This document shows, piece by piece, positions 19,029 to 60,912 of a stretch of DNA of 64,000 nucleotides. A model generated the notes under the pieces. That model did not search any database, was not told where the DNA came from, and was given only the letters and a program-made list of their open reading frames with translations. The translations under genes were made by a program, and so were the position numbers. Source of the stretch: an uncultured Gammaproteobacteria bacterium (GTDB lineage Bacteria; Patescibacteriota; Microgenomatia; UBA8517); assembly GCA_964617045.1 (NCBI GenBank), contig CAZTVZ010000003.1, positions 32,257 through 96,256 of the forward strand, in the 5' to 3' direction. Each line of letters begins with the position of its first letter. The first letter of the stretch is position 1.

Positions 19029-19072
19029 AAAAGGCGGGCATTCGTCCCACCAATATTCTCGATTCCGGTGTA

Positions 19073-19101
19073 ATTTTACCTCAGGAGGCTATTCAAGTCA
19101 A
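19073..19101 (-). promoter_or_regulatory. sigma70-like promoter for nusA-infB operon (TTGACT-17-TAAAAT)
   Basis: On the minus strand the -35 is at 19096-19101 and the -10 at 19073-19078. It lies in the dnaJ-nusA intergenic region. Confidence 0.45.
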
Positions 19102-31008: not shown

Positions 31009-33042
31009 ATGGATTATCTGAGCATTTTATATTGGTGGATATTTTTATTTTTACTGGGGCTTATAAACTACCCTTTTTCGTTCATTCTTCTGAGGAAAAA
31101 CTCCGATCGCGGTTACGGATTATCCAAAATTATATCTCTTCTTCTGATTAGCTACATCCTTCTTTTGGGTTCTTCGCTCAAGTTGTTTCCTTTTACGATA
31201 TATTCTTCCCTTTCCGCGTTGCTTCTTCTTGTTTTTGTTAACACACTAATCTTTCTAAAAAATAAAAGGGAAATTATTCGTGACACAAAACTAACTATTC
31301 GATTAATTATCTTTCAGGAAATATTATTTTCCTCCGCATTACTCTTTTGGTCTTTTATTAAAATGCACAACCCTGACATTCGAAGCTTGGAAAAATTTAT
31401 GGATTACGGGTTTATAAACTCGATCTTAAAAAGCCCTTGGCAACCTGCTCAGGACATGTGGTTTGCCGGAGGAAAAATAAATTATTATTATTTCGGACAT
31501 TTCTATACTGCAGTTGCCACAAGATTGTCTTTTCTGCCCAGCTCAATTACTTACAACCTCATGCTGTCCACAATTTTAGGGTTTTTAGTTAACGGAGCCT
31601 ATTCTCTGGTGCACACGATTTTTTCATCTCTCCCTAAAGGGATCAACAAAAAAGCGGTTTCTGCAGGGATAATTTCATTTCTGCTTGTATCTTTCGCGGG
31701 AAATTTCCATACGCCGATATATGCCTTTCAAAAAGGAATCGATAAATATTGGTATCCGGATGCGACAAGATTCATCGGTTATAATCCCGACACCAACGAC
31801 AAAACAATACATGAATTTCCCCTCTACTCTTTCGTCGTGTCTGATCTGCATGCCCACTTATTGGGAATTCCAATCGTAATTCTTTATTTGAGTTTCCTGT
31901 TCATGATTTTCGGCTCTTCCGAAAATATAACATTTCGAAAACGCATCCCGTTCTTGCTGTTCCCAGGATTTTTATTCGGGCTTATGTTTATGACCAACAC
32001 CTGGGATTTTGCCTCATATATGCTAATCACCGGAGTTTGCCTCGTTATGTCACGGATATCTCTATTTAAAGATATTGGCAATATTTCTCAAGCCGTCTAT
32101 GACATTTCTTTAAACATTATTATTCTTCTTGTTATTGGCTTGATTACTGCGCTTCCGTTTATCCTTAATTTCGAATCAATTGCGGAGGGTGTGCAATTTG
32201 TAACTTCACGCTCCCCGGTTTGGCAATTGTTAATCTTATGGGGACTTCCGATACTACTTCTTGTTTTCTTTTCGGCTTTTATTATCGCAAAAAAGAAAGC
32301 CGAAAAATCAGATCTCTTTATTTTGGGACTATTGGTATCCTCTATTCTTCTCATTATCATCCCTGAAATCATATACGTAAAAGACATTTATATTGCATCT
32401 CATTACAGGGCCAATACTATGTTTAAAATTACCTATCAAGCATTTGTAATAGGTTATCTTTCGAGTGGATATGTTGCATTAAGAATAATCACTGGAATAA
32501 AAAATATTCCGTTTCGTATATTGTCCACAACGGTTTTTACTTTGCTATTTTCTGCAATGCTGACGTATCCGTTTTTTGCAGTAAATTCATATTTCGACAA
32601 ACTGGAAAACAAAACTGGCTTAAATGGAGAAACTTGGATTAAAAACACCTATCCCTCAACATATCGTGCTATTGAATATTTAAGGAATACCGTTTCCGAA
32701 CAAAAAATAATTACTGAAGCATCTGGAAACAGCTATACGGACTACAACGTAATTTCCAGCTATACTGGCCTTCCAACAATACAAGGGTGGTTTGTCCACG
32801 AGTGGTTATGGAGAGGAAGTGCAGAATTGCCCTCAGAAAGAGTCTCTGATCTGGAGATTCTATACACATCGAAAAATATTAACGAAGTAAAAAAGATAAT
32901 AGAAAAATATAAAGTTAACTACTTAATATACGGTTTTTTTGAAAAAGAAAAATATCCCAACAACAACGAACTATTAATAGACAGTCTCGGAGAAATAGTA
33001 TTTACCGATGGTGATACTACTATTTATTCAGTTGATTATTAA
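31009..33042 (+). CDS. DUF2298 / 'YYY'-domain polytopic membrane protein (GT-C-type putative glycosyltransferase)
   Basis: 677 aa with more than 12 predicted TMs. The signature Tyr triplet GGKINYYYFGHFYTAV is present. A C-terminal soluble domain follows. Confidence 0.65.
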   Translation: MDYLSILYWWIFLFLLGLINYPFSFILLRKNSDRGYGLSKIISLLLISYILLLGSSLKLFPFTIYSSLSALLLLVFVNTLIFLKNKREIIRDTKLTIRLIIFQEILFSSALLFWSFIKMHNPDIRSLEKFMDYGFINSILKSPWQPAQDMWFAGGKINYYYFGHFYTAVATRLSFLPSSITYNLMLSTILGFLVNGAYSLVHTIFSSLPKGINKKAVSAGIISFLLVSFAGNFHTPIYAFQKGIDKYWYPDATRFIGYNPDTNDKTIHEFPLYSFVVSDLHAHLLGIPIVILYLSFLFMIFGSSENITFRKRIPFLLFPGFLFGLMFMTNTWDFASYMLITGVCLVMSRISLFKDIGNISQAVYDISLNIIILLVIGLITALPFILNFESIAEGVQFVTSRSPVWQLLILWGLPILLLVFFSAFIIAKKKAEKSDLFILGLLVSSILLIIIPEIIYVKDIYIASHYRANTMFKITYQAFVIGYLSSGYVALRIITGIKNIPFRILSTTVFTLLFSAMLTYPFFAVNSYFDKLENKTGLNGETWIKNTYPSTYRAIEYLRNTVSEQKIITEASGNSYTDYNVISSYTGLPTIQGWFVHEWLWRGSAELPSERVSDLEILYTSKNINEVKKIIEKYKVNYLIYGFFEKEKYPNNNELLIDSLGEIVFTDGDTTIYSVDY

Positions 33043-35929: not shown

Positions 35930-36927
35930 TCAGACTGGCAAACGAAAACGATAAAGGTGATTTCAATAAAGTATCTACCCATCCCCTGCAATCATGGGAG
36001 TGGGGAAACTTTCGAAGCAAATGGGGAAATAAAATTGTTAGACTCGTTGAAGAGAAAAACGGAAAAATAACAAAGGCGCTCCAGATAATTTTCTCAGTCA
36101 TTCCGCATACCACTTACACCGTAGGAACTGTTATTAAGGGGCCTGAATTGTCGCAGGAATTAATCGACAAGGTAAAGTCTATAGCCCGAGAATATAATGC
36201 AATATTTATAAAATTTGAACCCAACTTAAAGAAAAACGATAAACAAATAGAAATTTACAAGAAAAATTCTTTCGTTAAAGGTAAAAGGCTGTTTACTCCA
36301 ACTACTTTCGAAATAGATCTTACAAAATCCGAAGATGAACTATTGAAAGGTTTTTCCCAAAAAACCAGATATAACATTCGGTTGGCACAACGTTACGGGG
36401 TAATAGTAAAAGAAGACTCTTCGCAAAAAGCTTTTAACAAATATCTCGAACTTACAAAAGAGACAGTTTCCAGGCAAGGATTCTATGCACATACGCAGAA
36501 ATATCACAAGCTCATGTGGGAAGAACTAAACTCCGGTAAAAACAAAATTGCCCATTTACTAACAGCCAATTACAAAGGGGAGATTATCACCACGTGGATT
36601 CTTTTTGCTTGGAACAATTGTCTATATTATCCTTACGGAGCTTCAACAGAAAAATTCAAAAACGTAATGGCCAACAACTTAATGATGTGGGAGGCAATTA
36701 AGTATGGTAAAAAATTACATTTGAAAACGTTTGATCTTTGGGGAAGAGAAGAGGGAAAGGGTTTTACCAAGTTTAAAGAAGGATATAATCCGCAGGTTGT
36801 TGAGTTCTCCGGATCATGGGATATGCCGACATCTAATCTGTATAATTTTTACAACATCCTCGATGGGCTAAGATGGATCGTCTTAAAACTCAGGTCCAGA
36901 GTGTTGAAGATAAAACCATCTTTTTAA
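35926..36927 (+). CDS. FemAB-family peptidoglycan interpeptide-bridge aminoacyltransferase (FemX-like)
   Basis: 333 aa. QKTRYNIRLAQRYGV is the FemAB signature region. The length and secondary-structure pattern are consistent with tRNA-dependent lipid II aminoacyltransferases. Confidence 0.65.
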   Translation: MIRLANENDKGDFNKVSTHPLQSWEWGNFRSKWGNKIVRLVEEKNGKITKALQIIFSVIPHTTYTVGTVIKGPELSQELIDKVKSIAREYNAIFIKFEPNLKKNDKQIEIYKKNSFVKGKRLFTPTTFEIDLTKSEDELLKGFSQKTRYNIRLAQRYGVIVKEDSSQKAFNKYLELTKETVSRQGFYAHTQKYHKLMWEELNSGKNKIAHLLTANYKGEIITTWILFAWNNCLYYPYGASTEKFKNVMANNLMMWEAIKYGKKLHLKTFDLWGREEGKGFTKFKEGYNPQVVEFSGSWDMPTSNLYNFYNILDGLRWIVLKLRSRVLKIKPSF

Positions 36928-47575: not shown

Positions 47576-48477
47576 CAAGACCTCTTCACTGGATAAAAAA
47601 TTTGTCGCTATTTGCGGCAATTCTATTTACGGGTGAATTGTATAACCCGATTCTTTTTTGGAAAGTATTTTGGGCTTTTATAGCCTTCAACTTTGCAACA
47701 TCCGCAACATATGTTTTTAATGACATACTGGATGTAAAGGTTGATAGACTTCATCCGATTAAAAAGAACAGACCAATCGCTTCAGGAAAAATGTCTATTC
47801 CCGTTGCAATCGCACTATCTCTCGGATTATCTTTGGCTTCTCTTTATCTTGCTGTTAATTTAAATTCCTTATTCTTTTTTATGGTTCTTTCTTATCTTGC
47901 AATTCAAATCCTATACAGCTTGGGTCTTAAAAAAGTACCTATCGTAGATATTCTTATCATTGCTTTCGGCTTTATTATGAGAGTATATTCAGGAGCTTTC
48001 GTTATTGATGCCCATCTTTCCGTTTGGTTTTTGCTGTGTGTAATTTCCGTAGCTCTGTTTTTGGCTTCAGGAAAAAGAAGAGCTGAACTTAATATTATTC
48101 AAAAAACAACAGTTGTCACAAGAGAAAGTTTAACAAAATACGACACCGAGCTTCTGAATTCTTTCGTCACGATGTTTGGAAGTGCAGCATGGTTGTCCTG
48201 GTCTCTTTTTTCATTTTTTGAATCACCAACAGCATCAACTCCCCTTTGGCTGTTGCTTTCGGAAATTTCGAAAACAACAACAATAAATAAATTAATGATG
48301 ATTACTATTCCAATTGTTATTTTTGGAATAATGAGATATCAAAGCCTTATCTTTAGAGGAAAAAGCGAAGCACCCGAAAAAGTACTCCTTACGGACAAAT
48401 CTCTTGTTATTTCTGTTCTCCTATGGCTTGGTTTGGTTATCTTCGTTCTATATGGCGGCATTGCCGCAGATTTTTAA
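47542..48477 (+). CDS. UbiA-family prenyltransferase, decaprenyl-phosphate 5-phosphoribosyltransferase-like
   Basis: The N-terminus is RPLHWIKNLSLFAAI. FNDILDVKVDRLHPIKKNRPIASG is the NDxxDxxxD motif. It overlaps the GT4 gene by 34 nt. Confidence 0.75.
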   Translation: MANLPSQIIKITRPLHWIKNLSLFAAILFTGELYNPILFWKVFWAFIAFNFATSATYVFNDILDVKVDRLHPIKKNRPIASGKMSIPVAIALSLGLSLASLYLAVNLNSLFFFMVLSYLAIQILYSLGLKKVPIVDILIIAFGFIMRVYSGAFVIDAHLSVWFLLCVISVALFLASGKRRAELNIIQKTTVVTRESLTKYDTELLNSFVTMFGSAAWLSWSLFSFFESPTASTPLWLLLSEISKTTTINKLMMITIPIVIFGIMRYQSLIFRGKSEAPEKVLLTDKSLVISVLLWLGLVIFVLYGGIAADF

Positions 48478-49446: not shown

Positions 49447-49518
49447 GGCCTGGTGGTGAAGTGGAAACACGGCTGTCTGCAAAACAGCTATGCGCGGGTT
49501 CGATTCCCGCCCAGGCCT
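49447..49518 (+). tRNA. tRNA-Cys (anticodon GCA)
   Basis: The sequence is GGCCTGGTGGTGAAGTGGAAACACGGCTGTCTGCAAAACAGCTATGCGCGGGTTCGATTCCCGCCCAGGCCT. The acceptor stem is a 7-bp GGCCTGG/CCAGGCC pair. The anticodon stem-loop is GCTGT-CTGCAAA-ACAGC and the T arm GCGGG-TTCGATT-CCCGC. CCA is not encoded. Confidence 0.85.
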
Positions 49519-50389
49519 CACAGATTTAACCTTTTTTTAAGCTCCAATCCGTATTCTTTGCTTTTCAAGGCAAATTGCATTATTGCTTCCAGGTATCCAA
49601 TTTTACTCCCCGTGTCATAATACTTGGCGTTGGATAATTCCAAAGCATAGCACTTCCCTTTGCCTGCCATTAGCATTCTGTCAATTGCATCCAGATAGCA
49701 AGGCTCTCTTCCTTCAACCTCTTTTATGGCCTTGGCAAAAAAGGGTTTAGCTTCCGGTGTAATCAAAAATCCAGACACTGTTGCGAGCTCACTCGGAGCC
49801 TTGCCCGGACCGGGTTTCTCAATAACGCTCTCGACATCCATTACATGCCCTGACACCATCTTGCCCTTAGCATATCCGTACTTGAGAGTATCTTCTTCTT
49901 TGCTGGTTCTGATTGCACCTAGAACGACGCCTCTATATTTGTCGTAAGCCTTGATTAATTGCTTAGCCCTGGAAGGTGAGGCTACAACGAAATCATCTCC
50001 CCAGAAGACCAAAAAAGGCTCGTTTCCAATATACTTGAGGCTGTTGTGGATAGGGACAGCATTACCGCTTTTACCTTTCTGTTTTATAAACCGAAAAGAG
50101 GCCAATTTCTCAATCTTTTTAAGGCTGTCCGCAATATCGGATTTCCCAGAATCTCTCAGAAGCTTGTCAAGCCTGGGGTTAGGCTTAAAATAGTTCTCCA
50201 GCACTTTTTTGTCTCCCTTTGTAACAATTATTATTTCTTCTATTCCTGCGTCAACCAATTCCTCGACAACAATCTGAATAATAGGCTTGTCTAAAACCGG
50301 GAGCATTTCTTTGGGTATTGTTTTTGTGATAGGAAGAAATCTGGTGCCAAAACCGGCTGCAGGGATAACTGCTTTTTTGACTTTCATTA
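49518..50389 (-). CDS. galU: UTP--glucose-1-phosphate uridylyltransferase (GalU)
   Basis: MKVKKAVIPAAGFGTRFLPITKTIPKEMLPVLDKPIIQ is the canonical GalU N-terminus. The six-frame ORF extends to 50630, but the conserved start is 50389, 9 nt after a TAAAAT -10 element. Confidence 0.9.
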
Positions 50390-50394
50390 GGCAC

Positions 50395-50423
50395 ATTTTA
50401 GCCTGAAAAGAGTCGTTTGCCAA
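50395..50423 (-). promoter_or_regulatory. sigma70-like promoter for galU (TTGGCA-17-TAAAAT), leaderless arrangement
   Basis: On the minus strand the -35 is at 50418-50423 and the -10 at 50395-50400. The ATG lies 6-9 nt downstream. Confidence 0.45.
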
Positions 50424-50435
50424 GACCCTCCAAAC

Positions 50436-50465
50436 TTGACTTTTCGGGTTTTTGTAGGGTATAAT
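50436..50465 (+). promoter_or_regulatory. sigma70-like promoter (TTGACT-18-TATAAT), divergent from the galU promoter
   Basis: The -35 is at 50436-50441 and the -10 at 50460-50465. Confidence 0.45.
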
Positions 50466-50471
50466 CGGCCA

Positions 50472-50612
50472 CTCGCTAAAAAGCGAGTTTTTTGTGCTTA
50501 GCCTTAAACTAGGCTCAAAAGTATAGGCCTTGCCCAAGCTTAAAACTTGGGCATTGTTTTTCTTTGGATTTCCATTGAAAAGCCCCCCTTGCGGGCTGCC
50601 GAGGCAAGGGAT
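50472..50612 (+). ncRNA. structured leader RNA upstream of the M23 peptidase gene (four successive hairpins, two with U-tracts)
   Basis: Four stem-loops are visible by eye. The first is CTCGCT-AAAA-AGCGAG followed by TTTTTTG (50472-50494). The second is AGCCT-TAAACT-AGGCT (about 50499-50514). The third is GCCCAAG-CTTAAAA-CTTGGGC followed by ATTGTTTTT (about 50532-50561). The fourth is CCTTGC-GGGCTGCCGAG-GCAAGG (50587-50609), directly before the ATG at 50614. Confidence 0.4.
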
Positions 50613-50613
50613 T

Positions 50614-51279
50614 ATGACTAAATTCAACATAAATCTGCCTAAATATCGCCTTCAAATCAATTTGATCAAGAGGCGAGCTTCCAATGAAGACAAACCTTTA
50701 CTTCCCGATCTTGATGAGATCAAAAATACGAAATCCGGAAGCAAGGTTTCTCGTTATTTCAGGCACATCTTTGAGCACAAAAACATTAAAAAAGTGCTTG
50801 GGGCAAACTTGGCTGTAGCCTTAATTGCCACATCTTTTGTACCTGGGAAAATTGACGTCGAGGCAAGTTCCGAAGCCTTTGTTATTGCCGAATCAAACGG
50901 ACCTTTCACCACAGAAAAGGTTGTACAGTATCCTGTGGAAAAAATCTCTATTACCCAAGGATTTAAAGTATTCCATCCCGGAATCGATCTTGACGGAATA
51001 ACCGGAGATCCGATCAAACCCATCAAAAAGGGTGTTGTTGAGGCTATAAGCAGATCTAAATATGCCTACGGAAACGCCATTATTATTAATCACGGAGGAA
51101 ATGTTACATCTTTATATGCTCATTTGAGCAAAATTTTGGTTGCCGAAGGTGACGAGGTCAATACCAACACAATTATTGGTGAAATGGGTGCCACTGGTAG
51201 ATCCTTTGGAGACCATTTGCACTTGGAAATCAGAGATAACGGCATTCCTGTTAATCCACTGTTGATTTTGCCTCGTTAA
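50614..51279 (+). CDS. M23 family metallopeptidase (LytM-domain peptidoglycan endopeptidase), membrane-anchored
   Basis: Shows HPGIDL, GNAIIINHGGNVTSLYAHL and GDHLHLEI (the HxxxD/HxH zinc motifs), with a TM at residues 60-77. The six-frame ORF starts at 50530, but that region is taken up by leader hairpins. Confidence 0.8.
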   Translation: MTKFNINLPKYRLQINLIKRRASNEDKPLLPDLDEIKNTKSGSKVSRYFRHIFEHKNIKKVLGANLAVALIATSFVPGKIDVEASSEAFVIAESNGPFTTEKVVQYPVEKISITQGFKVFHPGIDLDGITGDPIKPIKKGVVEAISRSKYAYGNAIIINHGGNVTSLYAHLSKILVAEGDEVNTNTIIGEMGATGRSFGDHLHLEIRDNGIPVNPLLILPR

Positions 51280-51281
51280 GA

Positions 51282-51299
51282 AACCTGTTAACCCAGGTT
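51282..51299. terminator. hairpin AACCTG-TTAACC-CAGGTT between convergent M23-peptidase and groEL genes (possible bidirectional terminator)
   Basis: A 6-bp perfect stem. There is no strong U-tract on either side. Confidence 0.25.
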
Positions 51300-51303
51300 A
51301 AGC

Positions 51304-53214: not shown

Positions 53215-53268
53215 TTAGCAAATTAGCTTAGTGAGTGCTATTTTAGCCAGGGTTTTTTCAATTGTCAA
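53215..53268 (-). promoter_or_regulatory. groESL promoter (TTGACA-17-TAAAAT) with a CIRCE-like operator immediately downstream
   Basis: On the minus strand the -35 is at 53263-53268 and the -10 at 53240-53245. The CIRCE-like ATAGCACTC-N9-ATTTGCTAA lies at 53215-53241 and ends 4 nt before the groES ATG. Confidence 0.6.
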
Positions 53269-60910: not shown

Positions 60911-60912
60911 TA

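Follow-up and report, generated by a model that had tools for sequence, protein, structure and literature searches.

A promoter-proximal hairpin and U-run conserved upstream of an M23 peptidase gene in Microgenomates-type bacteria: a candidate sensor-less attenuator

Protective 5' stem-loops, such as those of Escherichia coli ompA and of Bacillus subtilis model mRNAs, must sit near the 5' end of the RNA and begin within about 4 nt of it. In the PR'-tR' unit of lambda, a strong constitutive promoter is followed by a close terminator, and a short RNA is made unless RNA polymerase is modified at the promoter by the Q antiterminator.

In B. subtilis, NusA promotes termination within the nusA 5' leader and thereby controls its own gene (PMC12288461). 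The HMP-PP/thiS riboswitch is reported to be a very small terminator-embedded aptamer (PMC6478431). Here we analyse the leader of an M23 peptidase gene. We give about even chances to the reading that this leader is a sensor-less attenuator, in which two intrinsic terminators, HP1 and HP3, stand in tandem and a further helix, HP5, covers the ribosome-binding site.

Promoters and hairpins between galU and the M23 peptidase gene

The locus lies in a 64,000-nucleotide stretch of DNA, the whole of which was analysed and is called here the window. The window has a GC content of 38.9% and comes from a low-GC bacterium of the Microgenomates/Woesebacteria type; in homolog searches its nearest named relatives were Daviesbacteria, Woesebacteria and Microgenomates metagenome-assembled genomes (MAGs). 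The 226 nt that separate galU from the M23 gene are non-coding. The locus is composed as follows.

49447–49519, plus strand: tRNA-Cys(GCA) gene (Rfam tRNA match of 65.8 bits; ARAGORN was run on the window and 21 related loci)
49521–50387, minus strand: galU-like nucleotidyltransferase gene, from the list of open reading frames (ORFs), with its ATG at 50387–50385 (Pfam NTP_transferase, E = 4e-28)
50395–50423, minus strand: galU promoter, TTGGCA-17-TAAAAT (-35 at 50423–50418, -10 at 50400–50395; 10 of 12 consensus positions)
50436–50465, plus strand: M23 promoter, TTGACT-18-TATAAT (-35 at 50436–50441, -10 at 50460–50465; 11 of 12 consensus positions)
50471–50493, plus strand: HP1, ACTCGCT-AAAA-AGCGAGT, a hairpin at 50471–50488 with 7 bp (4 GC) and a 4-nt loop, and a T6 run at 50488–50493 (-9.1 kcal/mol; two terminator scans)
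50500–50515, plus strand: HP2, AGCCT-TAAACT-AGGCT, 5 bp, without a T-run (-6.4 kcal/mol)
50531–50562, plus strand: HP3, TGCCCAAG-CTTAAAA-CTTGGGCA, a hairpin at 50531–50553 with 8 bp (5 GC) and a 7-nt loop, and the tail TTGTTTTTC (-12.6 kcal/mol; two terminator scans)
50556–50583, plus strand: HP4, GTTTTTC..TGG-ATTT-CCA..GAAAAGC (-10.2 kcal/mol, z = -4.45)
50586–50610, plus strand: HP5, CCCTTGC...GCAAGGG, a start-proximal helix that ends 3 nt before the ATG (-13.3 kcal/mol)
50614–51279, plus strand: gene for an M23 peptidase of 221 aa that has a membrane anchor at its N terminus (Pfam Peptidase_M23, E = 1e-28)

A promoter scan placed both promoters at the positions quoted by the first-pass annotation of this DNA, on the minus strand for galU and on the plus strand for M23. 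They had been described there as divergent leaderless promoters. The description holds for galU: its -10 hexamer ends only 7 nt from the ATG, so that the galU mRNA is predicted to be leaderless, and the spacing is the same in a relative whose M23 protein is 83% identical (the 83% relative) and at several other window genes. It does not hold for M23, whose leader measures about 142 nt from the predicted transcript start to the ATG at 50614. The M23 -10 hexamer is directly followed by a GC-rich discriminator, CGGCC (50466–50470), which suggests that this promoter is possibly growth-rate sensitive. An N-terminal extension of the M23 protein from a TTG at 50530 was rejected, as homologs of 220–227 aa align from residue 1.

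At many window genes a -10 hexamer lies 6–8 nt before the ATG, and many genes therefore look leaderless. An SD-like motif precedes 12 of the 54 window ORFs, against a background of 15%, and clear GGAGG sites, 7–11 nt from the ATG, were found at a few operon-internal genes. Convergent window genes abut or overlap, which leaves no space for terminators between them.

HP1, HP3 and HP5 are present exactly as quoted in the first-pass annotation. The leader is also structured, as stated there, but the count of four hairpins has to be raised to five, HP2 and HP4 being the extra two. Each of the five also folds alone. When a stretch of 160 nt holding the 142-nt leader was folded, its minimum free energy (MFE) was -63.6 kcal/mol, compared with -42.6 +/- 4.3 kcal/mol for dinucleotide shuffles (z = -4.9; none of the 200 shuffles was as good). 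The letter that follows the T6 run of HP1 is a G, the 5' arm of HP4 overlaps the T-tail of HP3, and in HP5 the 5' arm is rich in pyrimidines, while the 3' arm with which it pairs is G-rich and SD-like. The 83% relative retains HP4, whose inner stem is larger there, and a hairpin at the position of HP2 is kept, with an altered sequence, in that relative and in many other orthologs.

Two other candidates were discarded. A GGCC/GGCC helix that closes HP1 and HP2 in the predicted fold is uncompensated in the relative and lies upstream of the likely transcript start. A leader peptide, encoded by a 10-codon GTG ORF after HP1, shrinks on inspection to 4 codons in the 83% relative.

HP1 and HP3 both have the features of intrinsic terminators, namely a G+C-rich stem of at least 5 bp, a short loop and an adjoining U-run. 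Both lie between the predicted M23 transcript start and the ATG at 50614, which is the position of an attenuator. The first-pass annotation had offered an attenuator as one of its alternatives, and this alternative fits the data.

Terminator-like sites were then counted by a strict hairpin-plus-T-run scan of the whole 64 kb on both strands, which gave 26 sites, 21 of them inside ORFs. The 142-nt leader holds two strong plus-strand sites, where about 0.02 are expected at the window rate. Strong intergenic sites on the sense strand number four in the 64 kb, each with a near-consensus promoter before it and a start codon after it. HP1 and HP3 account for two of them; the other two are listed here.

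19051–19033, minus strand: terminator-like site 22 nt before the nusA ATG (Pfam NusA_N and KH_5)
184–165, minus strand: terminator-like site before the ORF at 142, which runs off the window

At both of these sites the promoter occupies the space that separates the hairpin from the stop codon of the preceding gene. The nusA-leader site starts at about +15 and is hence not 5'-terminal. The ORF at 142 may resemble RpoB N-termini; no match to it was found in PDB, in NCBIfam, in a word-index protein search or by BLASTP against an E. coli RpoB N-terminus. Of the intergenic sites of this kind in related loci (about 265 kb), almost all were M23-leader hairpins; a few ordinary terminators were also observed at gene 3' ends.

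The hairpin and U-run common to orthologous leaders

Orthologous loci were collected in three ways. A galU search of GTDB genomes gave a single locus with an adjacent M23 gene (L001), an M23 search of metagenomes gave 64 loci with 47–70% protein identity, and exact-protein look-ups of closer homologs added one distinct leader, that of the 83% relative. The M23 promoter is conserved among them, the same plan being present in 35 of 35 orthologous upstream regions: a TTGAC or TTGCT -35, a spacer of 17–18 nt and a TAnnnT -10. The -35 has the form (A)AACTTGAC(T/A) or TTGCTT, the spacer is partly conserved, and the stretch that follows the -10 is short, often GC-rich and commonly TGCG.

In every ortholog HP1 lies 4–11 nt after the -10 and is followed by 5–8 T. 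The consensus of its stem is (A)UCYCGC/GCGRGA(U). A covariance model composed of the -10, HP1 and the tail (R1) had one match in the 64-kb window (E = 5e-6; next best, E = 0.7) and detected no second copy of HP1 there; HP1 is therefore not a repeated or genome-wide element. In 55 sources, with M23 proteins approximately 47–100% identical to that of the window, R1 had exactly one match each, always just upstream of M23 and on the same strand. The sources that gave no match were mostly cut at the 5' side, and two of them (L127 and L130) start inside the leader.

Covariation in relatives was the check that the first-pass annotation had set for a structured leader, and it was observed for HP1 and, as described below, for HP5. 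In an alignment of 39 distinct HP1 sequences, 94% of the cells are paired and both sides have changed in five of the seven pairs. None of 500 shuffles reached the same covariation score, and pairing fell to 17–54% when the 3' partners were slid. The U-G intermediates pair only in the plus-strand RNA, which makes HP1 an RNA feature of the M23 transcript. The stem sequence is more conserved than structure alone demands, and the loops vary freely (4–9 nt, about 30 nt in L139), with no conserved unpaired nucleotides. Each of the 39 distinct copies has a T-run of 5–8, including copies in leaders whose AUG lies over 100 nt further on. Judged from these alignments, selection acts on the hairpin as well as on the U-run.

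With a transcript start placed 7 nt after the -10, which is a prediction from the -10 itself, HP1 would begin at approximately +1 to +5. HP1 could in that case be a 5'-terminal stabilising stem-loop acting against 5'-end-dependent RNases, the other hairpins tuning stability or translation, with little or no termination. The tight spacing of 4–11 nt between the -10 and HP1 in every ortholog is an argument against an attenuator, since it suits a stabilising stem-loop and a terminator needs none. In addition, the shortest leaders (L115 and L125) consist of HP1 and its U-run followed by the ATG, and these could represent a 5' hairpin and a U-rich ribosome landing site. A stabiliser, however, has no need of the 5–8 T that are kept in 39 of 39 copies, and the persistence of the U-run more than 100 nt from the AUG favours a terminator over a purely stabilising hairpin. 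Second hairpins with T-runs also recur among the orthologs, and the site in the nusA leader, at about +15, is not at the 5' end of its RNA. On balance we consider it unlikely that stabilisation accounts for HP1.

The position of the tRNA gene points to another role. In most relatives the M23 promoter is immediately preceded by a co-oriented tRNA-Cys(GCA) gene, and in L084 some 43 nt, without another terminator, separate the 3' end of the tRNA from HP1. HP1 could be the terminator or insulator of the upstream tRNA-Cys unit, with the M23 promoter squeezed between the tRNA gene and this terminator, and a relic without a role of its own in the window; the nusA and 165–184 sites likewise nest a promoter between a stop codon and a hairpin. 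However, in the window, L145, L001, L087/L088/L099 and probably L121, galU is located on the opposite strand between the tRNA gene and the M23 promoter. The five galU-type lineages have no co-directional transcription to stop, and yet HP1 and its U-run are intact in them, with stabilities of -7 to -13.7 kcal/mol and lineage-specific compensatory changes. Where galU lies between, it is the M23 promoter, and not the tRNA gene, that HP1 accompanies. Ending the tRNA transcript is therefore not its sole role, and the reading of HP1 as a tRNA terminator that is a mere relic in the window is, in our opinion, decidedly unlikely. HP1 may nevertheless also end the tRNA-Cys transcript where the tRNA gene adjoins.

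The remainder of the leader and the search for a sensor

Ortholog leaders, taken as the stretch between the -10 hexamer and the ATG, range from 31 to 202 nt and contain one to six simple hairpins. Those that follow HP1 number from none to five and have no sequence in common between lineages. In the shortest form (L115, L125 and L090) the ATG comes almost directly after HP1 and its U-run. In a common short form, HP1 is followed by a second hairpin, also with T-runs, and then by an unstructured ...CTGCCCAAT-ATG. The long forms, with three to six hairpins, include the window, the 83% relative, L085, L091, L092, L135 and L123. Of 36 distinct ortholog leaders, 16 or more contain a second hairpin with a T-run, and all 33 of 33 distinct ortholog leaders are more structured than their own shuffles (median z = -4.75). 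An all-against-all blastn-short comparison revealed no conserved core between HP1 and the last hairpin; the matches were within clades or between palindromic hairpins of 12–16 nt.

This variability bears on the idea, also put forward in the first-pass annotation, that the region is a small RNA gene, in which the promoter, HP1, HP2 and HP3 would form an independent unit ending at a terminator. A strong promoter with terminator-like hairpins behind it, near +24 and near +90, is what such a gene would look like, but the orthologous versions would range from about 25 to about 90 nt and their sequences are unrelated. Moreover, in L115 and L125 the U-run of HP1 abuts the M23 ATG, the element invariably precedes M23 directly and in the same orientation, and it matches no Rfam sRNA family. 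A separate small RNA gene is extremely improbable.

In long forms the last helix ends 0–6 nt before the ATG. Its 5' arm contains CCCC, CCUC or UCCC and its 3' arm GGGG, GAGG or AGGG, and the stems are perfect, with 6–9 bp and -9 to -16 kcal/mol. HP5 covaries: in 18 long-form leaders 88% of the cells are paired and both sides have changed in six of six pairs, counts that are biased upward because the 18 sequences were chosen and trimmed by predicted folds. The comparison of the window with the 83% relative gives a clean compensatory change, from G-C to A-T. A sequestered purine-rich SD would be expected about 5–10 nt from the AUG. The G-rich arm lies 3–6 nt from the ATG, compared with 7–11 nt at the clear GGAGG sites of this genome; given this spacing and the low use of SD sequences, it may not be an SD.

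The first-pass annotation had suggested, among its readings, a riboswitch, possibly of a new class, had named c-di-AMP/ydaO-type elements as an example of such control, and had recommended an Rfam scan of the leader. The scan gave a best E of about 1, with nothing above noise. With Rfam 15, only tRNA was detected in the whole window at gathering thresholds; in 50350–50680, searched up to E = 10, the best matches had E values of 0.9–7 and scores far below their gathering thresholds. Only tRNAs reached the gathering score in 20 orthologous loci, and the ydaO/c-di-AMP model had no match in the leader or in these 20 loci. By inspection, no conserved alternative (antiterminator) pairing was found. 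A long-range pairing of the HP3 5' arm with the HP5 3' arm, which appeared as a candidate in the window, was lost on inspection of the 83% relative. A conserved aptamer, with a fixed multi-helix architecture and conserved unpaired nucleotides, is absent from these leaders.

A riboswitch, or a switch controlled by a protein or an RNA, could also reside in HP1 itself, in the form of a terminator-embedded aptamer or of a target for a dedicated antiterminator factor. Wall-hydrolase genes are known riboswitch targets, and very small aptamers embedded in terminators exist, such as, reportedly, the HMP-PP/thiS riboswitch (PMC6478431). The HP1 stem, UCYCGC/GCGRGA, is conserved beyond structural need, and the promoter spacer is partly conserved. 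Yet neither the leader nor the 20 loci have an Rfam match other than tRNA, the HP1 loops are free in sequence and length with no conserved unpaired nucleotides, the number of hairpins varies from one to six, the central regions are unalignable across lineages, and the candidate HP3-HP5 pairing is absent from the 83% relative. Among the transcribed parts only one, a simple hairpin beginning near +1, is universal, and upstream of it a sensor would have no space. A switch of any of these kinds is very unlikely, and the candidacy of the leader as a riboswitch should be downgraded.

The attenuator that we propose would work as follows. A strong, conserved sigma-70-type promoter would drive transcription into a leader of independent simple hairpins that act as brakes, with no ligand sensor. 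HP1 would fold within the first ~25 nt of the RNA and form an intrinsic terminator with its U-run, and HP3 would be the second terminator, so that most polymerases would stop early and only read-through transcripts would reach M23. In the read-through mRNA, HP5 would pair the G-rich, SD-like tract located 3 nt from the AUG with the pyrimidine-rich arm, and would keep translation of a potentially lytic wall hydrolase low. By analogy with the nusA precedent, the level of read-through would presumably follow the general condition of the transcription machinery (NusA/NusG, supply of NTPs, rate of elongation) and would not be set by a metabolite-binding aptamer. In relatives in which tRNA-Cys lies 40–50 nt upstream, HP1 would also terminate the tRNA transcript.

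A damped output would be sensible for an M23 hydrolase that is membrane-anchored and possibly lytic. Regulated read-through, as opposed to constitutive damping, is unsupported, because a terminator at +1 to +5 would leave a sensor no space and inspection revealed no antiterminator pairing that is conserved. It is doubtful, and we think improbable, that HP1 with its U-run and the second terminator constitute a dedicated sensor-less attenuator that makes synthesis of a division-type wall hydrolase follow the condition of the transcription machinery (NusA/NusG, pools of NTPs, rate of elongation), or that is opened by a hypothetical antiterminator loaded at the conserved promoter or at the UCYCGC stem. 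If such a dedicated attenuator did exist, it would be a Microgenomates-specific regulatory element amid mostly leaderless mRNAs and rare terminator punctuation.

Comparison with described leader systems

To our knowledge, almost nothing is known of gene regulation in CPR/Patescibacteria, which cannot be grown alone. The element described here covaries before one wall-hydrolase ortholog across a whole clade. It is a clean cis-element that could join Rfam: a terminator hairpin close to the 5' end follows a promoter, and in some orthologs a helix covers the ribosome-binding site. If read-through were regulated, an autolytic enzyme would be tied to growth without classical regulators. The distribution of terminator-like sites hints that in these reduced genomes, where leaderless genes prevail, intrinsic terminators serve chiefly as regulatory brakes, placed in a small number of leaders, which in the window would be those of M23, nusA and one more gene.

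A described CPR or M23 leader motif was not found in the literature, and the M23 leader is best compared with other systems part by part. Stem-loops of the ompA hp1 type resemble HP1 in that the hairpin is a few nucleotides from the predicted 5' end; unlike them, HP1 always comes with a U-run of 5–8, unneeded by a stabiliser. As in lambda PR'-tR'/Q, a strong promoter has a terminator close behind it; this likeness is an analogy only, and no Q-like factor or binding site was identified for the M23 leader. Platforms of the ydaO/c-di-AMP type likewise precede peptidoglycan hydrolase genes, within the 5' leader, and combine a terminator hairpin with an SD-sequestering helix, a role that HP5 may also have. 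The M23 leader differs from them in having no aptamer, Rfam match or conserved alternative pairing, and in its variable number of hairpins.

HP5 pairs an AUG-adjacent G-rich tract with a CCUC-like arm and covaries, as do SD-sequestering helices and RNA thermometers. Stems of the HP5 type are, however, too stable for RNA thermometers (perfect, -9 to -16 kcal/mol), and the host genome, in contrast to those of SD-sequestering systems, is largely leaderless or SD-poor.

The B. subtilis nusA leader likewise has an intrinsic terminator between promoter and start codon, with no aptamer and with read-through controlled via general factors (PMC12288461). The nusA gene of the window itself resembles that of B. 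subtilis, with a terminator-like site 22 nt before its start. Unlike B. subtilis nusA, the M23 leader controls a wall peptidase, with no evident autoregulatory loop; it has two terminator-like hairpins, the first from about +1, and its dependence on NusA is only putative. In conclusion, the M23 leader is an undescribed cis-element of one clade and one gene, built from known parts.

Translation starts and gene ends in the window

Many genes of the window look leaderless or nearly so, because a TAnAAT hexamer, readable as a promoter -10 element, lies 6-10 nt upstream of the ATG. Examples from a survey of the whole window are:

ATGs with a nearby TAnAAT: 9554, 41671, 46137, 50387, 57367 and 58411

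Shine-Dalgarno (SD)-like motifs precede only 12 of the 54 ORFs, against a background of 15%, and clear GGAGG sites are found mostly in front of operon-internal genes.

Convergent gene pairs either overlap or are separated by at most 24 nt:

33020-33042, 36924-36927, 48474-48477, 51280-51303 and 60911-60912, junctions of convergent genes

No terminator-like hairpin was found between the paired genes at these five junctions, and the 3' end of the M23 peptidase gene, which is opposed to groEL, has no terminator.

Surroundings of the M23 leader in orthologous loci

The order tRNA-Cys(GCA) then M23 peptidase is kept throughout the clade, in the window and in the orthologous Microgenomates loci (L081-L142).

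49447-49519, tRNA-Cys(GCA) of the window, with counterparts in L081-L142

In some loci galU lies between the two in opposite orientation, and in others the two are direct neighbours; in the latter, the M23 promoter occupies the 40-50 nt that separate the tRNA from HP1, the first terminator-like hairpin of the leader. The leaders of several lineages (L083, L086, L091, L092 and L120) share a small palindrome that forms a hairpin, RGGCUA-(2-3 nt)-UAGCCY, and the second hairpin of the window leader (50500-50515) is a flipped form of it, AGCCU...AGGCU.

Other leaders of the window

Three further leaders were noted, all on the minus strand:

137-241, minus, leader upstream of the ORF at 142, with promoter and two hairpins (sequence features)
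53215-53245, minus, CIRCE-like sequence overlapping the groES leader (likeness to the CIRCE consensus)
19033-19101, minus, nusA leader, with promoter, hairpin and T-run read in the sequence

The first has its promoter (TTGACA-16-TATAAT) beyond the stop codon (258) of a YceG/MltG-like gene, followed by a 5'-proximal hairpin and then a terminator-like one, CTCCTC-gtctatca-GAGGGG + TTTTTG. The ATG at 142 starts an ORF, MTENHSKPRINFGKRED..., which continues beyond the window edge. Its N-terminus may be RpoB-like; this likeness was not confirmed in PDB, NCBIfam, a word-index protein search or BLASTP against an E. coli RpoB N-terminus.

The CIRCE-like groES sequence is aTAGCACTC-N9-atttGCTAA, immediately 3' of the -10, with a degenerate second half-site. 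In locus L092 (12-33, minus), a sequence with the same TAAAAT-AGCACTC start contains a 9-bp hairpin with T5 upstream of an ATG.

Resemblance to known regulatory systems

The nusA promoter, TTGACT-17-TAAAAT, begins directly 3' of the stop codon (19107) of a DnaJ-like gene; downstream of it are the hairpin GGTGGG-acgaatg-CCCGCC and TTTTTTG, and the nusA ATG (19010) is 22 nt further on. In B. subtilis, the leader terminator through which NusA autoregulates its gene has this same layout. At the M23 promoter, the 4-6 nt past the -10 are frequently GC-rich in the orthologs (L081-L142), commonly TGCG; the window counterpart is CGGCC (50466-50470), in a genome of 39% GC. This stretch is similar to the discriminator of promoters under stringent control.
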